IMG/VR virus record: IMGVR_UViG_2565956719_000006 | Reading direction: 5' to 3' (one strand) | Source of the DNA: a virus | Taxonomy: Duplodnaviria; Heunggongvirae; Uroviricota; Caudoviricetes | Length of the DNA: 10,371 nt | Shown here: positions 363-8,434 of the stretch, in pieces | How positions within the stretch are numbered: the first letter of the stretch is position 1 | Layout: each line of letters begins with the position of its first letter | Program-made: the position numbers and the translations under genes | The notes under the pieces: model-generated | Seen by the model: only the letters and a program-made list of their open reading frames with translations | What the model was told of the DNA's origin: nothing | Database searches by the model: none

Positions 363-1274
363 ATGACCATACTGGTACCCCCAAGCAAATTTTGCATTTA
401 CTCAGATGATTCTAGGGCTGGGACATTGAACTTCATCAACTCGATTGAATCGATTGGAGTAAAAAATAAAGGTCGAGTTATAGTTGATTTGTCCAAGGTA
501 AAATTTGCCTCAGCTGCGGCATCGGTACTGTTCTTTGCCATAGTAAATAGAGCTCAATTTTTAACCCGGGACCCTAATTTTATACGTTTTAAATGGCCTA
601 AAAAGGATGATAACCCATCTGGGCATAGATGGATCGTTGGTACTGGACTTGCTCGTGCTTTGCTTGCTGGCACAGAAGAGAAACTGAATGCACTTACGAG
701 GGAGGAACGATACTTTCAGTCAGCTGTCGAACCTTACGAGCATATTGTTGAAACAGTACTCATGCTGCAGAAAAGTGCTCTGCTTAATAATGAACAGTTA
801 GGCTTACTGCTGACAGCGATTAGTGAAGCTTTGCTCAATGTTTCTCATCATGCGTATGAAGATGAGGGGTTCGAGTCAGATATTCAGCTTCTCAAAGGTA
901 AACGATGGTGGCAGTGCGCTTGGTTCAATCGTGATGAAAATAAAGTCGTTTTTATCGTTTGTGACCTTGGATTGGGGATTTATAGAAGTTTCGTGCCTAA
1001 TGGTGATGGTCATAGCATTCAAAACGAAGTATCTTCTGTGGAAAGAGCTATGTTAGTAGGGGAATCCCGCTTTGTTGGTTCCGGACGGGGAAATGGCTCT
1101 GAAGATATCAAGAGACCTATTGGGGCAGGTTGTGAGGATAATGAGACACTTCTGATACTAACAGGAAGGGCTCGTTATAGCTATAATTCTAATGACAGTA
1201 GTCCTCGATGTGAGAAGCTAGCTGAGTACATACCGGGTACTTTACTACAATGGTCGCTGGTTCCCAGGAGATGA
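363..1274 (+). CDS. GHKL-superfamily (Bergerat-fold, histidine-kinase-like) ATPase, anti-sigma/RsbW-like class; possible N-terminal STAS-like segment
   Basis: 303-aa ORF with N-box EALLNVSHHAY (aa 155-165), G1 box DLGLG (aa 201-205) and G2 box GSGRGNG (aa 239-245) in canonical order and spacing. N-terminal stretch VIVDLSKVKFASAAASVLF resembles a STAS core motif. Stop lies 4 bp before the next start. The SD is weak, so the start is uncertain. Confidence 0.75.
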   Translation: MTILVPPSKFCIYSDDSRAGTLNFINSIESIGVKNKGRVIVDLSKVKFASAAASVLFFAIVNRAQFLTRDPNFIRFKWPKKDDNPSGHRWIVGTGLARALLAGTEEKLNALTREERYFQSAVEPYEHIVETVLMLQKSALLNNEQLGLLLTAISEALLNVSHHAYEDEGFESDIQLLKGKRWWQCAWFNRDENKVVFIVCDLGLGIYRSFVPNGDGHSIQNEVSSVERAMLVGESRFVGSGRGNGSEDIKRPIGAGCEDNETLLILTGRARYSYNSNDSSPRCEKLAEYIPGTLLQWSLVPRR

Positions 1275-1278
1275 TTTT

Positions 1279-1605
1279 ATGAGAAATATCGTCATAGCGA
1301 AGGAGTTCTCCAGAACACCTTTCGGACGTTACACAACGGATAGCCCACACAGTGCGGAAAGATTTCGTAGAGAGTTTTTGGTGCCTGCGCTGAAGGGTAC
1401 TGAACAGGAGATTGTGGTTGATTTTCGCGGTATAGCACTGGGTGTTGGTTCCTCTTTCTTAGAAGAGGCGTTTGGAGGTCTCATCCGTAAGGAAGGGATA
1501 CCTAAAGCCAACGTTAAAGCACGTTTGATTATAAAAAGTGATGTTCCGTTCTACAAAGAACAGATTGATAAATTTATTGATTTAGCACAACCAGAAAGAG
1601 TATAA
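1279..1605 (+). CDS. Small STAS-like protein (DUF4325-like), candidate partner or substrate of the upstream GHKL ATPase
   Basis: 108-aa ORF with a good SD (AGGAGA) upstream of ATG 1279. Motif EIVVDFRGIALGVGSSFLEEAFGGL (aa 44-68) fits the STAS / DUF4325 pattern (beta-strand, then a Ser-Ser-Phe helix) as I recall the family. Tight spacing to both flanking genes. Confidence 0.7.
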   Translation: MRNIVIAKEFSRTPFGRYTTDSPHSAERFRREFLVPALKGTEQEIVVDFRGIALGVGSSFLEEAFGGLIRKEGIPKANVKARLIIKSDVPFYKEQIDKFIDLAQPERV

Positions 1606-1615
1606 GAGGCGATAG

Positions 1616-2233
1616 TTGATCAGTACGGAACCAATGTCATTAGTAGCACAAATAGGACAGTATTCGTGGTGTATCACAGTAGTTAGCGTCTGCTTAGTTT
1701 TCATTGGATGGCGAGTTGCGTACAATAATTCTGTAAAACTGGCGACACGTTCTGAATCGAAATCAATTATTGATGCTATTTCAAAGTTAGTTATTGAAAT
1801 TTCTGATATTTCTTCTAACTATTGGCTCAGTCAGACAACTCAACCTAAAATTAGAGCATCAAAGCATCGATTGTTAAGGTTGCAAAAGGATAGAACAAAG
1901 GCTTCTGTTTCATACTTGTTAACTATCTTGGCTAAAGCTCAACAAGTTTCCAAACTGATTTGCATTTTGGAAAGCAGAGGACTGTATATACCTGACGAGG
2001 TGTTCTCATCTGTACTAGAGAAAGCAACTCTGGATTGTGAGGTCGCTCACAAGCTTTCAGATGCCGATCGCCCGGTTAAAGCACAAGAAGTAATTGATGC
2101 TTGTATGGGAGTTATCGAAGCGTTACATACTTCTTTTCAAAGGTACCACCCTCCCAAAAAGGATCGTACCTTTATGCAAAGGTTAAAAATTTGGTTTCAA
2201 ACAGTAGACGATTGGCATAATGACTTAAAATAA
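1616..2233 (+). CDS. Membrane-anchored hypothetical protein (one N-terminal TM helix plus charged soluble domain), third gene of the operon
   Basis: 205-aa ORF starting at TTG 1616 with AAGAGG 6 nt upstream (alternative ATG at 1634 has no SD). Hydrophobic segment YSWCITVVSVCLVFIGW near the N-terminus. Starts 11 bp after the upstream stop. Its 3' end overlaps the integrase 3' end by 9 bp. Confidence 0.65.
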   Translation: MISTEPMSLVAQIGQYSWCITVVSVCLVFIGWRVAYNNSVKLATRSESKSIIDAISKLVIEISDISSNYWLSQTTQPKIRASKHRLLRLQKDRTKASVSYLLTILAKAQQVSKLICILESRGLYIPDEVFSSVLEKATLDCEVAHKLSDADRPVKAQEVIDACMGVIEALHTSFQRYHPPKKDRTFMQRLKIWFQTVDDWHNDLK

Positions 2234-3605: not shown

Positions 3606-4472
3606 TTAACGAATAGTGTCGTTACTTTGAAGTACAGCAAATGCCATTAATACTTCTAAAGTATATCTTCTATAAAATTTAACAAAACCAACATAGAAAA
3701 CATAGACGAAGAAAAAGCTAAGCATTATTGAAAGTAAACTATAAAGATAATCACTATGAGTACATAATCGATAAATAAAGGTTGGAACTGATACCCAAAA
3801 TGAAATTATAAAGATTAAACATATGTTTCTGCAAAAACCATATAATGCAACATAGTTTTGAATTTTTGTTTGATGTTGTTTTGAAAACTCATAAACATAA
3901 TGATATGCCAATCTGAAGAGATCATCATCAAGTCCGTTTTTATCTTGTAATAATTGGCGATTTGTTATGAACTTTTTCTCATAACCTTCTTTGATCATTA
4001 ACCATGTTGTATTAGCTAAATGAAATGGTAGAGATTGAGAATAACATAGTTTTTGTGTTATAAAATCCCATAGTATTATTGGACATAATACGCATTTGAT
4101 TATGCGATTCTTTATTTTTGTTTTTTTATCAGCGCTTCTCTCATCGCATGATGGGCTACAAATGCTTTCTGAGGTATCTATCAATTTTTTAAATAGATAT
4201 TTGGAAGGATATCCTAATTCTTTATTCATGTATTTTTCGATAAAAAATGCTGACGTGATAGAAATAAAATGTCCAGCTATATAAGATATAATAACTATTG
4301 AAGCGTAGTTCAAAATGCCAAAGATTTGACTTTGACCTCTGAGCAATTCACTTAAGTCAATAACAATATCTAGATCGAATGTCAAACCACAGAAATACAT
4401 TAATAGGATAAAAAAACCACCTGGTATTAAATATCCAAGAAAGTCATAGAATGAGAATGGATTTTGATTCAT
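3606..4472 (-). CDS. Polytopic inner-membrane protein of unknown function (AT-rich moron)
   Basis: 288 aa from ATG 4472, preceded by GGAGAG SD (the ORF-track start at 4496 is 8 codons upstream). About 5-6 hydrophobic helices (e.g. FLGYLIPGGFFILLMYFCGLTF, ICLIFIISFWVSVPTFIY, LYSLLSIMLSFFFVYVFYVGFV). Visibly AT-rich compared with neighbours, with an AT-rich 108-bp upstream spacer. Confidence 0.7.
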   Translation of the reverse strand: MNQNPFSFYDFLGYLIPGGFFILLMYFCGLTFDLDIVIDLSELLRGQSQIFGILNYASIVIISYIAGHFISITSAFFIEKYMNKELGYPSKYLFKKLIDTSESICSPSCDERSADKKTKIKNRIIKCVLCPIILWDFITQKLCYSQSLPFHLANTTWLMIKEGYEKKFITNRQLLQDKNGLDDDLFRLAYHYVYEFSKQHQTKIQNYVALYGFCRNICLIFIISFWVSVPTFIYRLCTHSDYLYSLLSIMLSFFFVYVFYVGFVKFYRRYTLEVLMAFAVLQSNDTIR

Positions 4473-4580
4473 TGTTGCTCTCCAATAATTTTTCAATTTG
4501 TAATATAACCTATATCTATATGTTAATAAATTACTTATATGTTCTTTTATGGCAGAGTTTGAATTCGTACGTGCTGATTT

Positions 4581-5232: not shown

Positions 5233-6057
5233 TCAGGCGGTAAAAGTACCAATAAAGGTTTCTACTTTGCTGTCCTTGAATTTCTCAACAAGCAGATCAC
5301 GAAATTCGTTAGCCATTTCTTCCTGCACTGCTTCCAGCTGAATAATGCGCAGAACCAGTACAGGACGATCGCCAGTGATAATGCTGAGGCGTAATTTAAA
5401 CGGACGTTCTTTCAGGCCTTCAAACGGAACGCATTTAAATTCAAATGCCACTGGCATAATATCTTTGGTCTTCGCTTCGACAGACTCCATCAGGGAGCGT
5501 TTGCCGCTGAAGTCATTGTCTTCAAAATCAGCGGTCTGGTTTGCTTCAATCGTGATTTTACGGACTGCCGCAGCCGCTTTTGTTGCCTGAATAGCATCAC
5601 CATTAGCATCAAAGCCCACAAGGTAGTCGGCCCAGTCTTCAATCCATTCTGCCAGTGACTTCTGGGAGTTACGCTCGCCGTTAACAGACAACAGGGCAGA
5701 GAACGGTGCTGTCTTTTTCAGTTTGAGAGTGGCGGTGTTATCTGCGTGACCAGGCTCATCAATAGTACCCAGGTTAAGCACACTGACGGCACGCATATTA
5801 TCGGCATCGATAAAGCAGCGGGTGCCTTCATCCGCAAGATCTTTAGAATAACGGGTAAAGTCATCGATGCTGGCAGTGGAAAGCGCACCACGGAAACGGA
5901 AGCGATTTAAATTAAATTTTTCCAGATCATGAATGCGGAAATTCTCAGGCAATACCACAGCATCGGCACCAATCTTACTGATAATTTCATTAACACCCTG
6001 AGCAGAAATAAGGGCATGGATTTGATTAATTGCGGTTGCGTCTAAGTTCTGAGACAT
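5233..6057 (-). CDS. yfdQ: YfdQ-like prophage protein (DUF2303 family)
   Basis: 274-aa ORF with GAGGA SD 7 nt upstream of ATG 6057. Length and neighbourhood match my recollection of K-12 YfdQ. Confidence 0.8.
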
Positions 6058-6533: not shown

Positions 6534-6622
6534 ACAAAACAGAGAAGAACACCTGCGGTGGCAGCCGCCCGGGTGGATTGGGTTATGAGCCCGTCGTCCG
6601 GTGATGCTCTTCTCTGTTTTGT
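6534..6622 (-). promoter_or_regulatory. Candidate structured leader RNA element: 15-bp perfect inverted repeat closing a 59-nt GC-rich loop, with boxA-like motif at its edge
   Basis: 6534..6548 (ACAAAACAGAGAAGA) is the exact reverse complement of 6608..6622. The enclosed segment contains two further short hairpins (GCGGTGGCAGCCGC; CGGGT...GCCCG). Minus strand at 6621..6633 reads CCGCTCTTTTTAC. It lies about 50 nt upstream of the yfdP-like SD. Confidence 0.3.
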
Positions 6623-6953
6623 AAAAAGAGCGGTACCAGCCGGAAGCAAGGGTACAAGCTGGTACCGCCAGGACTACACACAGCATAAAGTTGTGGTGCC
6701 GGGTGCCTCCCGGTGCCTGGCGAAGGTTGCACACCAGGCGGGTGGGTATCCACAGAAGGTCGACTGTCAGCCTCAACCTTAACCCGCGTGCGCTGAGCCG
6801 CATTCACCACAACGCTAAGGATTCTCTCTGGTTGAAAATACTTAGCTGTTATGTGCCTGCTTTTAGCCACATCAGGCGAGGTGGGCCTGGTTATTCCCCA
6901 ACAACAAGGATTCGGCTAATCTGGATGACTCTGTTCTTAGAGGGGATAATTAA

Positions 6954-7466
6954 ATGGGAGCGATTTATGTTAAACGTTTGATTCTGTCGGTAGCACTGAT
7001 AATACCGATAGCATCCAATGCTTCTGATGCTTTGAACCAGCCGAGCAGTAGTCTAAATGATGGTGTTGAGACTTTTTTTATTTCCTGCTTTGATATGCCT
7101 CAGGAAACAACTACTGATATGGACGCTTGTCAGAGAGTTCAGTTAGCTCAGGTTAGTTGGGTTAAGAATAAGTATTCGGTGGCCGCCCTGAATCGTTTGA
7201 AACAAGACAACAAGGATGATCCACAGCGTCTGCAGGAATTAACTGCTTCTTTTAACGCGGAAAGTGAAGCTTGGACAGAATTAATTGAGAAAGCGTCAAA
7301 GTCCGTCCAGGTTGATTATGCAGGAGGAACTATAGCTGGCACTGCAGTTGCATCACGTCAAATTGGTCTTCTGGAATTACAATCCCACGATATCTGGGAG
7401 CACTGGCTACGATTCGAGGACTCAACTCCTCCTCTTTTGCCAGAACCAAAGTTCAAATCTGAGTAA
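6954..7466 (+). CDS. Secreted/periplasmic protein with Sec signal peptide (possibly DUF1311/LprI-like), moron
   Basis: 170-aa ORF with SD GAGGGG. N-terminus KRLILSVALIIPIASNA|SDA is a typical signal peptide. Two Cys in the mature N-terminal part. Own intrinsic terminator downstream. Confidence 0.75.
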   Translation: MGAIYVKRLILSVALIIPIASNASDALNQPSSSLNDGVETFFISCFDMPQETTTDMDACQRVQLAQVSWVKNKYSVAALNRLKQDNKDDPQRLQELTASFNAESEAWTELIEKASKSVQVDYAGGTIAGTAVASRQIGLLELQSHDIWEHWLRFEDSTPPLLPEPKFKSE

Positions 7467-7493
7467 TAAGTCATCCAGATTGTTAAAGAGCGA

Positions 7494-7517
7494 AGCGTCC
7501 TATAGGGCGCTTTTTTG
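7494..7517 (+). terminator. Rho-independent terminator of the secreted-protein gene
   Basis: AGCGTCC-TATA-GGGCGCT stem (7 bp, one G-U) followed by TTTTTT, about 28 nt after the stop. Confidence 0.6.
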
Positions 7518-7594
7518 TTGCTAACGAATCATCCTGGACTTCATATGCCCCAGGCGGCTACTTCGTGGGCGTCCTGCCTGTTTGTTGTTTCTCT

Positions 7595-7630
7595 TGGGTA
7601 CATTATGTGTCTCAAAGGTACATTGTCAAG
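7595..7630 (-). promoter_or_regulatory. Putative leftward (PL-like) promoter with GTAC-core operator-like repeats
   Basis: Minus strand has TTGACA, an 18-nt spacer and TAATGT. Two direct GGTACATT repeats (7597..7604, 7617..7624) share the GTAC core of the OR palindromes. Confidence 0.3.
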
Positions 7631-7656
7631 TATAAAAAAACCTGCCGAAGCAGGTT
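7631..7656 (-). terminator. Rho-independent terminator downstream of cI
   Basis: On the minus strand, a CCTGC-TTCG-GCAGG hairpin (extendable by two A-U pairs) is followed by a U-run, 13 nt after the cI stop. Confidence 0.6.
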
Positions 7657-7668
7657 CATAAACATTGA

Positions 7669-8343
7669 TTAGGCTTTGATTTTGTATCTTCTTGGTTTTC
7701 CTGAGAAAATCACAGTACCAATTATAGAGCAATTACCGTTGATCTTAATGTAAGGCTCAGGCCAGTTTGGGTTTAACGCTTTGAGATAACGCTGTGTCCC
7801 ATCTTCTATCAACCTTTTGAAGGTGGTTTCACCTGTATCGTGCATCAATGCAATAACGTCGTCACCGTGGCAGGCAGGTACTTCAGGATCGACAAAAATC
7901 ATGTCTCCCGGGCGGTACTCATCAATCATTGAATCACCTATCACCCGCAAGATATAAGTCATTTCCCCACAGGGTACAGGGCAGGGATACGTTTCTGCTG
8001 TGCTCAAATCAACCTCAGAATATCCAACTTCTTTCCATGCTCCGGCCTGTACCCATGATATGACAGGGACTAATGTGATTTGTTTATTAGTGATTGAAAC
8101 ATCAGGTTTTTTTGTGATGTTCGTTGTCTGGTGTTCTTGATCGAGCCATCCGACAGGCAGGTCGAAACATTTTTCGATGTGTCGTGCCATGCTGTCACCG
8201 ATATTTTTAGTAGCACCATCTCCCATAAACCTGCTGGTCTGGGTTGGCTCGCGATCAATCATAGTGGCAAAGGAAGAATTCCCGCCAACACCATCTCTCA
8301 GTTTTCTGGCGTTAGACCGCCGGATGTCATGGATTGTTTTCAT
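7669..8343 (-). CDS. CI-like phage repressor (N-terminal HTH, C-terminal S24 LexA-like autopeptidase)
   Basis: 224 aa. C-terminal domain has catalytic Ser in VIGDSM and Lys in TFKRL, the LexA/CI S24 signature. Divergent from the cro-like gene. Confidence 0.9.
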   Translation of the reverse strand: MKTIHDIRRSNARKLRDGVGGNSSFATMIDREPTQTSRFMGDGATKNIGDSMARHIEKCFDLPVGWLDQEHQTTNITKKPDVSITNKQITLVPVISWVQAGAWKEVGYSEVDLSTAETYPCPVPCGEMTYILRVIGDSMIDEYRPGDMIFVDPEVPACHGDDVIALMHDTGETTFKRLIEDGTQRYLKALNPNWPEPYIKINGNCSIIGTVIFSGKPRRYKIKA

Positions 8344-8434
8344 AACGAAATTAAAACCCTTGTACCGTTAAGGTACAAGTATCTTGAAGGTTCATTTCAA
8401 TCATGTAATATGTACACCGTAGGTACACATTGTA
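8344..8434. promoter_or_regulatory. Immunity switch: OR-like operators with divergent PR and PRM promoters
   Basis: Palindrome CTTGTACC-GTTAA-GGTACAAG at 8359..8379 and imperfect TGTACACCGTAGGTACACA at 8411..8429. PR candidate is TTGAAG (8384..8389), 16 nt, TAATAT (8406..8411). PRM candidate on minus is TTGTAC, 17 nt, TTTAAT, ending 6 nt before the cI ATG, which implies a leaderless cI mRNA as in lambda. Confidence 0.6.

Follow-up and report, generated by a model that had tools for sequence, protein, structure and literature searches.

The viral sequence IMGVR_UViG_2565956719_000006 of the IMG/VR database (Caudoviricetes; 10,371 nucleotides, the whole of which is referred to here as the window) carries on its plus strand an open reading frame (ORF) of 170 codons, ORF170, at positions 6954-7466. 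ORF170 is a genuine protein-coding gene, and its product is a divergent, previously unannotated member of the DUF1311/LprI superfamily that is predicted, from its N-terminal sequence, to be a Sec-exported periplasmic protein. The gene is passenger cargo of an SfV/CPS-53-like prophage in extraintestinal pathogenic Escherichia coli (ExPEC) such as UTI89, and its setting is of a familiar type, a hot spot for cargo adjoining the immunity region. As a whole, these statements of identity are made with high confidence. The function is put forward far more cautiously: ORF170 may antagonise a peptidoglycan hydrolase in the periplasm. The features of the gene and its product are as follows.

6954-7466, plus strand: coding sequence of ORF170 (170 amino acids (aa) and stop), identical to UTI89 WP_000500990.1 ('hypothetical protein') and matching phrog_7681
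6940-6945, plus strand: Shine-Dalgarno sequence GAGGGG, 8 nt ahead of the ATG, read directly from the sequence
6954-7022, plus strand: codons M1-A23, the signal peptide, with a predicted signal peptidase I cut between SNA and SD, after A23 (hydropathy and -3/-1 rule)
7086-7130, plus strand: codons of the cysteine pair C45 to C59 at the start of helix 1, a presumed disulfide, invariant in 50/50 sequences
7419-7448, plus strand: codons of the C-terminal motif D156-S-T-P-P-L-L-P-E-P165, nearly invariant across the wider family
7492-7522, plus strand: intrinsic terminator, a stem-loop (7492-7513) and then a T run; a backbone element common to phages with other cargo

ORF170 is a protein-coding gene of an ExPEC prophage

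The preliminary description of this DNA had credited the gene with a Shine-Dalgarno sequence, a signal peptide and an intrinsic terminator, and all of these are present alongside the reading frame itself: GAGGGG, a predicted cleavage site with SNA ahead of S24, and the hairpin at 7492-7513. The hairpin has 9 pairs, 5 of them G-C, and a 4-nt loop, and is followed by TTTTTTG. Terminator-like sites number 12 in the region, compared to the 2.5 expected from shuffled sequences. The ratio of nonsynonymous to synonymous substitution rates (dN/dS) of ORF170 is 0.11 relative to the copy in a Klebsiella variicola prophage and 0.21 relative to that of Escherichia albertii, and on account of these values between prophage copies we conclude that the gene is under purifying selection. 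A chance reading frame was considered and was rejected on the dN/dS values, the depth of the homologues and the confidence of the structural model.

Positions 6800-7700 of the window are 99.9% identical to the chromosomes of the ExPEC strains UTI89, NU14, IHE3034, APEC O18 and UM146. The annotation of the surrounding genes places the UTI89 counterpart inside a prophage, whose annotated genes are the integrase followed by yfdR, yfdQ, yfdP and the 170-aa protein WP_000500990.1, next ymfK (LexA-family repressor), ymfT (cro-like), ymfL, replication genes, Dam, RusA and an antiterminator, and then a holin and a GH24 lysin (endolysin). It shares its backbone with the Shigella phages SfV and SfIV and with the K-12 remnants CPS-53 and e14. 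The cassette was detected at ~100% identity in 142 of 5,426 complete E. coli genomes (2.6%), with UTI89, IHE3034, APEC O18 and NU14 among the ExPEC lineages that carry it, and was not found in a search of plasmids. On the plus strand, no convincing sigma-70-like promoter was found within 250 bp upstream of ORF170. Sigma-E-like and sigma-54-like motifs, sought upstream by eye, were either not conserved or wrongly spaced and were dropped.

ORF170 belongs to the DUF1311/LprI superfamily

Among the Pfam families, ORF170 matched LprI/DUF1311 (PF07007) only, up to an E value of 10, and did not match MliC. The match covers residues 50-137 and profile positions 8-96 of 106, and scores 17.3 bits (E 0.0062) against a gathering threshold of 22 bits. 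PF07007 was also touched, weakly, by 11 of the 12 close homologues. An exhaustive HMMER search with a profile of the close homologues against 1.84 billion representative proteins returned 246 relatives at E<=1e-3, most of them ~140 aa in length. When 50 relatives were sampled, 45 matched PF07007, the best of them at E 2.8e-19. Moreover, the profile of the 50-sequence alignment matched the DUF1311 protein 3gi7 (PP0307) in the PDB at E 2e-6; searches of the PDB sequences with the single sequence and with the close-homologue profile gave only noise. The relatives' PF07007 matches and the 3gi7 profile hit show that the LprI/DUF1311-type fold suspected in the preliminary description was right at the level of the superfamily. 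In PHROGs, ORF170 falls in a family with unknown function. NCBIfam gave no hit for ORF170 itself, UmoC included, and literature searches by protein accession, locus tag and PHROG number found nothing.

The predicted signal peptide consists of an n-region containing K7 and R8, a 12-residue hydrophobic core (L9-A20; Kyte-Doolittle 2.5-3.3) and S21-N22-A23 before S24. The cleavage region, ASNASD, is nearly invariant among the homologues, and an N-terminal hydrophobic stretch was observed in 48 of 50 family members. Cleavage at the predicted site would leave a mature protein of 147 aa and ~16.5 kDa, acidic, with an isoelectric point of 4.6. A lipoprotein was also considered and was rejected because there is no lipobox cysteine.

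An AlphaFold model of ORF170 was generated from the 50-sequence alignment with a predicted local distance difference test score (pLDDT) of 90.7 and a predicted template modelling score of 0.81. It replaced a model from a 12-sequence alignment that had a pLDDT of 57 and for which the Foldseek matches were meaningless. The model predicts a β-hairpin (residues 31-43), helices at 53-85, 90-121 and 128-152, an extended proline-rich segment and a final strand (164-169). The modelled helices form a three-helix bundle, held by the one invariant cysteine pair (C45 and C59), as in the fold of PP0307 of Pseudomonas putida (3gi7), a solved example of PF07007, to which ORF170 adds the N-terminal β-hairpin and a C-terminal DSTPPxLPEP tail with its strand, both of which lie outside 3gi7. 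The β-hairpin was gained in the enterobacterial clade that includes ORF170. In the same clade the second cysteine pair of the family was lost jointly: the two positions are S115 and R135 in ORF170 and are Cys in 39 of 50 relatives. The subfamily carries the nearly invariant C-terminal signature W..WL.Y.DSTPPxLPEP, with the strand coming after DSTPPxLPEP.

The gene fills an exchangeable slot bracketed by an inverted repeat

The slot that holds ORF170 is made up of the following elements.

6925-7474, strandless: exchangeable cargo segment, flanked by backbone common to PhiR29_1, SfIV, E. coli M7424 and Ec-042, which carry other cargo
6918-6930, strandless: left arm of the inverted repeat, AATCTGGATGACT, 13 bp, conserved in the K. 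variicola and E. albertii copies
7469-7481, strandless: right arm of the inverted repeat, AGTCATCCAGATT, 13 bp, conserved in the same two copies

In BLAST comparisons with PhiR29_1, SfIV, M7424 and Ec-042, the left backbone ends at 6924/6926 and the right backbone resumes at 7473/7475. The backbone therefore includes the entire terminator and the greater part of the leader, and only ~550 bp is exchanged. This bears on the earlier portrayal of the gene as a self-contained unit, which stands insofar as it is compact and has a Shine-Dalgarno sequence, signal peptide and terminator, but does not extend to the leader and terminator, since these are backbone common to unrelated cargo. That the gene is of the cargo or conversion type, as had been proposed, is upheld by the different filling of the slot between backbone sequences in related phages. 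In PhiR29_1, SfIV, M7424 and Ec-042 the slot holds other small plus-strand genes. Among the products of the alternative cargo are a member of the 'ECs1072 family', a hydrophobic protein that probably resides in the membrane and, in our reading of the translation, a coiled-coil protein with a zinc-ribbon-like cysteine pattern.

We retrieved 120 viral contigs with the left frame of the slot (6885-6924), 112 of which also had the right frame (7475-7522). At least eight unrelated cargo families occupy the slot in these 112 contigs, nine of which carry ORF170-type cargo, and the longest slot ORF lies on the plus strand in 109. An empty slot was searched for in the viral contigs and none was found. 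Among E. coli genomes, 885 have the frames of the slot. An inverted repeat that begins with AATCTGG and ends with CCAGATT encloses each cargo, and the inner bases of the repeat vary with the type of cargo while complementarity is maintained. The arms AATCTGGATGACT and AGTCATCCAGATT occur with ORF170-type cargo only; several other cargo types have the arms AATCTGGATATCC and GGATATCCAGATT. The 13-bp repeat is kept in the Klebsiella and E. albertii copies while the coding sequence has diverged by ~25%. It may act in RNA, as a clamp joining the 5' and 3' ends of the cargo mRNA or of the antisense transcript from the leftward promoter (pL), or in DNA as a recombination frame.

ORF170 resembles lambdoid morons and conversion genes, such as lambda bor and lom, in being an extra gene that lies between conserved backbone genes and has a terminator. 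Like lambdoid conversion genes, it is a neighbour of the immunity region, and lysogens presumably express it. It differs from lambdoid morons in that its leader and terminator are common to all cargo types of the slot and in that the cargo is bracketed by an inverted repeat. Of the promoter and terminator that a moron has of its own, the terminator is present, yet is backbone, and no sigma-70-like promoter was found in the 250 bp upstream.

ORF170 lies outside the immunity module and antisense to a presumed pL

Between ORF170 and the repressor gene, and at that gene itself, the following features were located.

7669-8343, minus strand: cI/ymfK repressor gene (LexA-family, S24 peptidase)
7638-7657, minus strand: terminator of the cI transcript; the equivalent site is annotated in SfV
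7602-7629, minus strand: pL-like promoter TTGACA-16-CATAAT, 11/12 consensus, directed leftward into the antisense strand of ORF170
7586-7624, strandless: two operator-like 19-nt repeats (7586-7604 and 7606-7624), 20 bp apart, overlapping the pL-like promoter

ORF170 thus faces the LexA/S24-type repressor gene and is convergent with it, as had been described, and its place between the repressor and the early-left genes, which are yfdP, yfdQ and yfdR, is likewise confirmed. The equation of this place with the slot of lambda rexAB, in contrast, has to be given up. In lambda, rexAB form part of the immunity module: they are located between cI and pL and share both strand and transcript with cI. 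ORF170 is on the opposite strand, is separated from cI by the cI terminator (7657-7638) and the pL-like promoter region (7586-7629), and is neither co-transcribed with cI nor between cI and pL, being antisense to pL.

The operator-like repeats share a TGTACC/GGTACA half-site with the perfect palindromes TGTACN7GTACA found between cI and cro at 8361-8377 and 8411-8427. In relatives with other repressors (heteroimmune phages), similarity to the backbone is kept up to 7586-7589 and is lost exactly there; in ST64B a different operator set begins at the equivalent point. Judged by these features, the region 7586-7629 is what a leftward operator and promoter would look like, and we presume it to contain pL. 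The immunity module accordingly starts at ~7586 and does not include ORF170, which is located downstream of pL on the strand opposite to the presumed early-left transcript.

Relatives of ORF170 occur in prophages and in chromosomes

Close homologues of ORF170 were found in Enterobacteriaceae only. The copies of K. variicola (71% identity) and E. albertii (65%) lie in the same slot between yfdP and the repressor in related prophages, a position held despite ~25% nucleotide divergence; the repressor that neighbours the K. variicola copy differs from that of the window. Relatives in Raoultella (66% identity) and Klebsiella sp. (56%) have ordinary chromosomal surroundings outside prophages. A sister clade of ~163-aa proteins, ~42% identical to ORF170, occurs in varied contexts in Erwinia, Lonsdalea, Enterobacter (E. 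soli), Sodalis and Pantoea. By eye, its sequences are very similar across the five genera in unrelated chromosomal contexts, which suggests recent horizontal spread of this clade, and one copy lies beside an integrase-like ORF. A tblastn search with ORF170 of the 50,697 phage records in INPHARED found no homologue.

The wider family is widespread in Proteobacteria, and its genes are chromosomal in sphingomonads, vibrios, Psychromonas, halomonads and others. To describe its surroundings, three genes on either side of 68 chromosomal loci, found with a 16-sequence alignment, were clustered. The clustering revealed lineage-specific synteny only, for example with sucC, etfAB, sensor kinases, formate dehydrogenase and AmpC.

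ORF170 may antagonise a peptidoglycan hydrolase

Since ORF170, with its helical bundle of a binding type, has no catalytic motif, it most likely acts by binding. We propose, by analogy with characterised DUF1311 proteins, that the mature protein would bind and neutralise, or modulate, a peptidoglycan-cleaving enzyme in the periplasm. Candidate targets would be a type VI muramidase effector entering the cell, host lysozyme, a phage lysin or a lytic transglycosylase of the cell itself, and the outcome would be that the cell wall of the lysogen is protected or tuned. As the gene opposes pL, repression of pL in the lysogen would allow ORF170 to be made, and after induction its production would be damped by convergent early-left transcription. 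We regard this mechanism as a tentative proposal whose chances are somewhat below even; our combined statement of the identity and the mechanism of ORF170 comes closer to even odds, falling only slightly short of them.

Several characterised proteins suggest such a role. In enterohaemorrhagic E. coli, the DUF1311 protein Etsi4 rescues the toxicity in E. coli of Etse4, a type VI effector that acts in the periplasm (PMC12981562). In Pantoea, some LprI-domain genes have lysozyme-like type VI effectors as neighbours and some are orphan immunity genes (PMC9796082), and others are found beside WHIX effectors (PMC12135965). These type VI immunity proteins (Etsi4, the orphans of the Pantoea hcp island and the neighbours of WHIX) are small and periplasmic, and effector-less orphans are known among them (PMC12981562, PMC9796082, PMC12135965); ORF170, in contrast, is carried by a prophage, has neither a type VI cluster nor an effector in its vicinity and is likened to them by its domain only. 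LprI (Rv1541c) of Mycobacterium tuberculosis inhibits lysozyme, and has the DUF1311 domain and export in common with ORF170, for which export is predicted; LprI is, however, a lipoprotein that also carries an MliC domain (as described in PMC7933661), whereas ORF170 has neither a lipobox nor an MliC match. ORF170 can also be likened to ScwA (SL1344_0490) of Salmonella Typhimurium, a horizontally acquired, low-GC, cell-wall-linked LprI-domain protein that is periplasmic, needs its disulfides and changes the levels of MltD, Slt, AmiC and other peptidoglycan hydrolases (PMC7933661). ScwA differs in having 275 aa, the domain at its C-terminus and two disulfides, and in being chromosomal rather than phage-borne.

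A number of observations weigh against the proposed mechanism or the assignment beneath it. The PF07007 score of ORF170 itself is below the gathering threshold (17.3 versus 22 bits), and the protein lacks the second cysteine pair usual in the family. With no promoter identified, expression of ORF170 in the lysogen is an assumption. No toxin, effector, lysozyme-like or type VI partner recurs near the 68 chromosomal loci, for which ORF calling was crude in high-GC genomes. Nor is an effector or hydrolase gene a recurrent neighbour in the prophages, where the neighbours of ORF170 are yfdP and the repressor. Because no such neighbour recurs, the reading of ORF170 as an immunity protein is drawn from superfamily analogy alone. 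Furthermore, ScwA, which has a DUF1311 domain and no MliC, gave no lysozyme resistance (PMC7933661). Given this result and the separate MliC domain of LprI, 'lysozyme inhibitor' may be a misnomer for the DUF1311 domain. Some members of the wider family also weakly resemble UmoC flagellar regulators.

Another explanation is that ORF170, rather than neutralising a foreign enzyme, modulates envelope homeostasis or signalling, either by shifting the abundance or activity of the host's own cell-wall enzymes or by feeding into envelope signalling such as Rcs/flhDC, and so alters the physiology or virulence of the lysogen. ScwA, with the same domain, not only changes MltD, Slt and AmiC levels from the periplasm but also tones down virulence (PMC7933661), and ORF170 is found in the ExPEC lineages UTI89, IHE3034, APEC O18 and NU14. 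Matches to the NCBIfam family UmoC (flagellar biogenesis regulator) were obtained for nine of 16 members of the wider family, whose genes stand alone in the chromosome in lineage-conserved contexts with no toxin partner. These matches are weak, however, at 25-42 bits compared to a cutoff of 120 bits, and ORF170 itself has none, while ScwA, with its 275 aa and two disulfides, has only the domain in common with ORF170. We consider a modulator of this kind rather unlikely, though worth keeping in view.

ORF170 could also be a neutral hitch-hiker, a housekeeping-type periplasmic gene that was captured from an enterobacterial chromosome and is kept by linkage, with no lysogen-specific function. The chromosomal relatives outside prophages in Raoultella (66%) and Klebsiella (56%), the spread of the wider family through Proteobacteria, the lack of an identified promoter and the presence of the cassette in just 2.6% of complete E. 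coli genomes would all fit such an origin. Against this, there is purifying selection between the prophage copies of three genera (dN/dS 0.11-0.21), the slot has been retained through ~25% nucleotide divergence, and the bracketing repeat and the frame are conserved. We regard a neutral passenger as improbable.

In a further explanation, superinfection exclusion or another anti-phage activity, periplasmic ORF170 would block a step of phage entry at the envelope, such as DNA ejection or a virion-associated lysin, or else endolysin-mediated lysis by superinfecting phages. Its place beside the immunity region is typical of lysogen-expressed exclusion genes, the slot resembles defence hot spots in the many small and unrelated genes found there, and the GH24 endolysin of this prophage family is a plausible class of target for a lysozyme-inhibitor-like fold. 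We nevertheless regard such an activity as improbable: PADLOC models match neither ORF170 nor two other cargo proteins of the slot, close relatives lie in non-phage chromosomal loci, no homologue is found among the 50,697 sequenced phages of INPHARED, and an inhibitor of endolysin, if not turned off, would also impede lysis by the prophage itself.

RNA elements and further cargo around the slot

On the pL strand, positions 7480-7491 (minus strand) match the core of rrn-type boxA, GCTCTTTAACAA, exactly over 12 nt. This boxA is immediately preceded by the hairpin that acts on the opposite strand as terminator of the cargo, and immediately followed by the cargo repeat, a placement suggesting that a single palindrome is used by both strands. 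The presumed early-left transcript opens with a noncoding element of ~64 nt (7523-7586, minus strand), whose conservation extends to heteroimmune phages of Salmonella (ST64B), Citrobacter (phiNP), Pantoea (AH07) and Klebsiella. Its consensus fold comprises an outer stem and two hairpins, with compensatory changes in three of 16 pairs. The single-sequence fold of the leader is unremarkable (z 0.01), and the structure is visible only in the comparative alignment. An Rfam search with the element gave no match. It could be an antitermination element (nut- or put-like) or a leader RNA.

On the other side of the slot, positions 6621-6843 (minus strand) match the prophage small RNA (sRNA) family STnc100 (RF02076) over its full length with 45.4 bits (E 2.7e-8), below the gathering score of 47. 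The match ends at a terminator-like hairpin, and hairpins are located at 6534-6622 and 6630-6668; positions 6500-6700 fold far better than shuffled sequences (z -7.1). RefSeq annotates a 'frameshifted hypothetical protein' pseudogene in this region. In the K. variicola prophage, an insertion of ~500 bp relative to the window separates the STnc100-like region from the cargo leader (~5385-5890 of that locus) and holds, on the opposite strand, a stretch resembling the 3' half of a tRNA.

Further genes of the window may be cargo. Beside the integrase, three co-oriented genes at 363-2233 (plus strand) encode products of 303, 108 and 205 aa. The 303-aa product weakly matches the histidine-kinase-like ATPase family HATPase_c_2 (E 9e-5) and the 108-aa product matches the STAS-like DUF4325 (E 6e-14); the 205-aa product gave no family match, and PADLOC gave no hit for the three-gene set. 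These genes could be partner-switching-like cargo at the prophage end. Between xis and yfdR, a 296-aa ORF at 3606-4496 (minus strand; very low GC content, 28%) has a hydrophobic N-terminal part and a weak PADLOC match (E 1.4e-5) to Csx27, a membrane protein that accompanies type VI-B CRISPR systems. It looks like a further cargo gene.

Implications

The surroundings of ORF170 are more unusual than the gene itself, in that a framed, strand-biased slot is found together with boxA, a structured pL leader and an STnc100-like sRNA. One way of joining these elements would be to view the slot as a dedicated cassette-exchange site in the early-left leader of SfV-like phages. Cargo would sit inside the split palindrome AATCTGGAT / ATCCAGATT, directly beside an exact rrn-type boxA and between a structured pL-leader RNA and an STnc100-like sRNA, and would be expressed only with pL silent; ORF170 would then be a phage-delivered 'orphan immunity' protein that shields lysogens from type VI muramidases or from the lysins of competing phages. 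We offer this joint reading as a long shot. Whatever the protein does, the framed, strand-biased slot downstream of pL provides a convenient natural system for studying how temperate phages swap and regulate passenger genes. If ORF170 is indeed an antagonist of peptidoglycan hydrolases, the prophage would equip the bacterium that carries it with a ready defence against type VI attack, host lysozyme or rival phages, which would bear on the fitness of ExPEC carriers such as UTI89, IHE3034 and APEC O18, and a testable function would be at hand for a widespread, unstudied DUF1311 subfamily marked by the DSTPPxLPEP tail.

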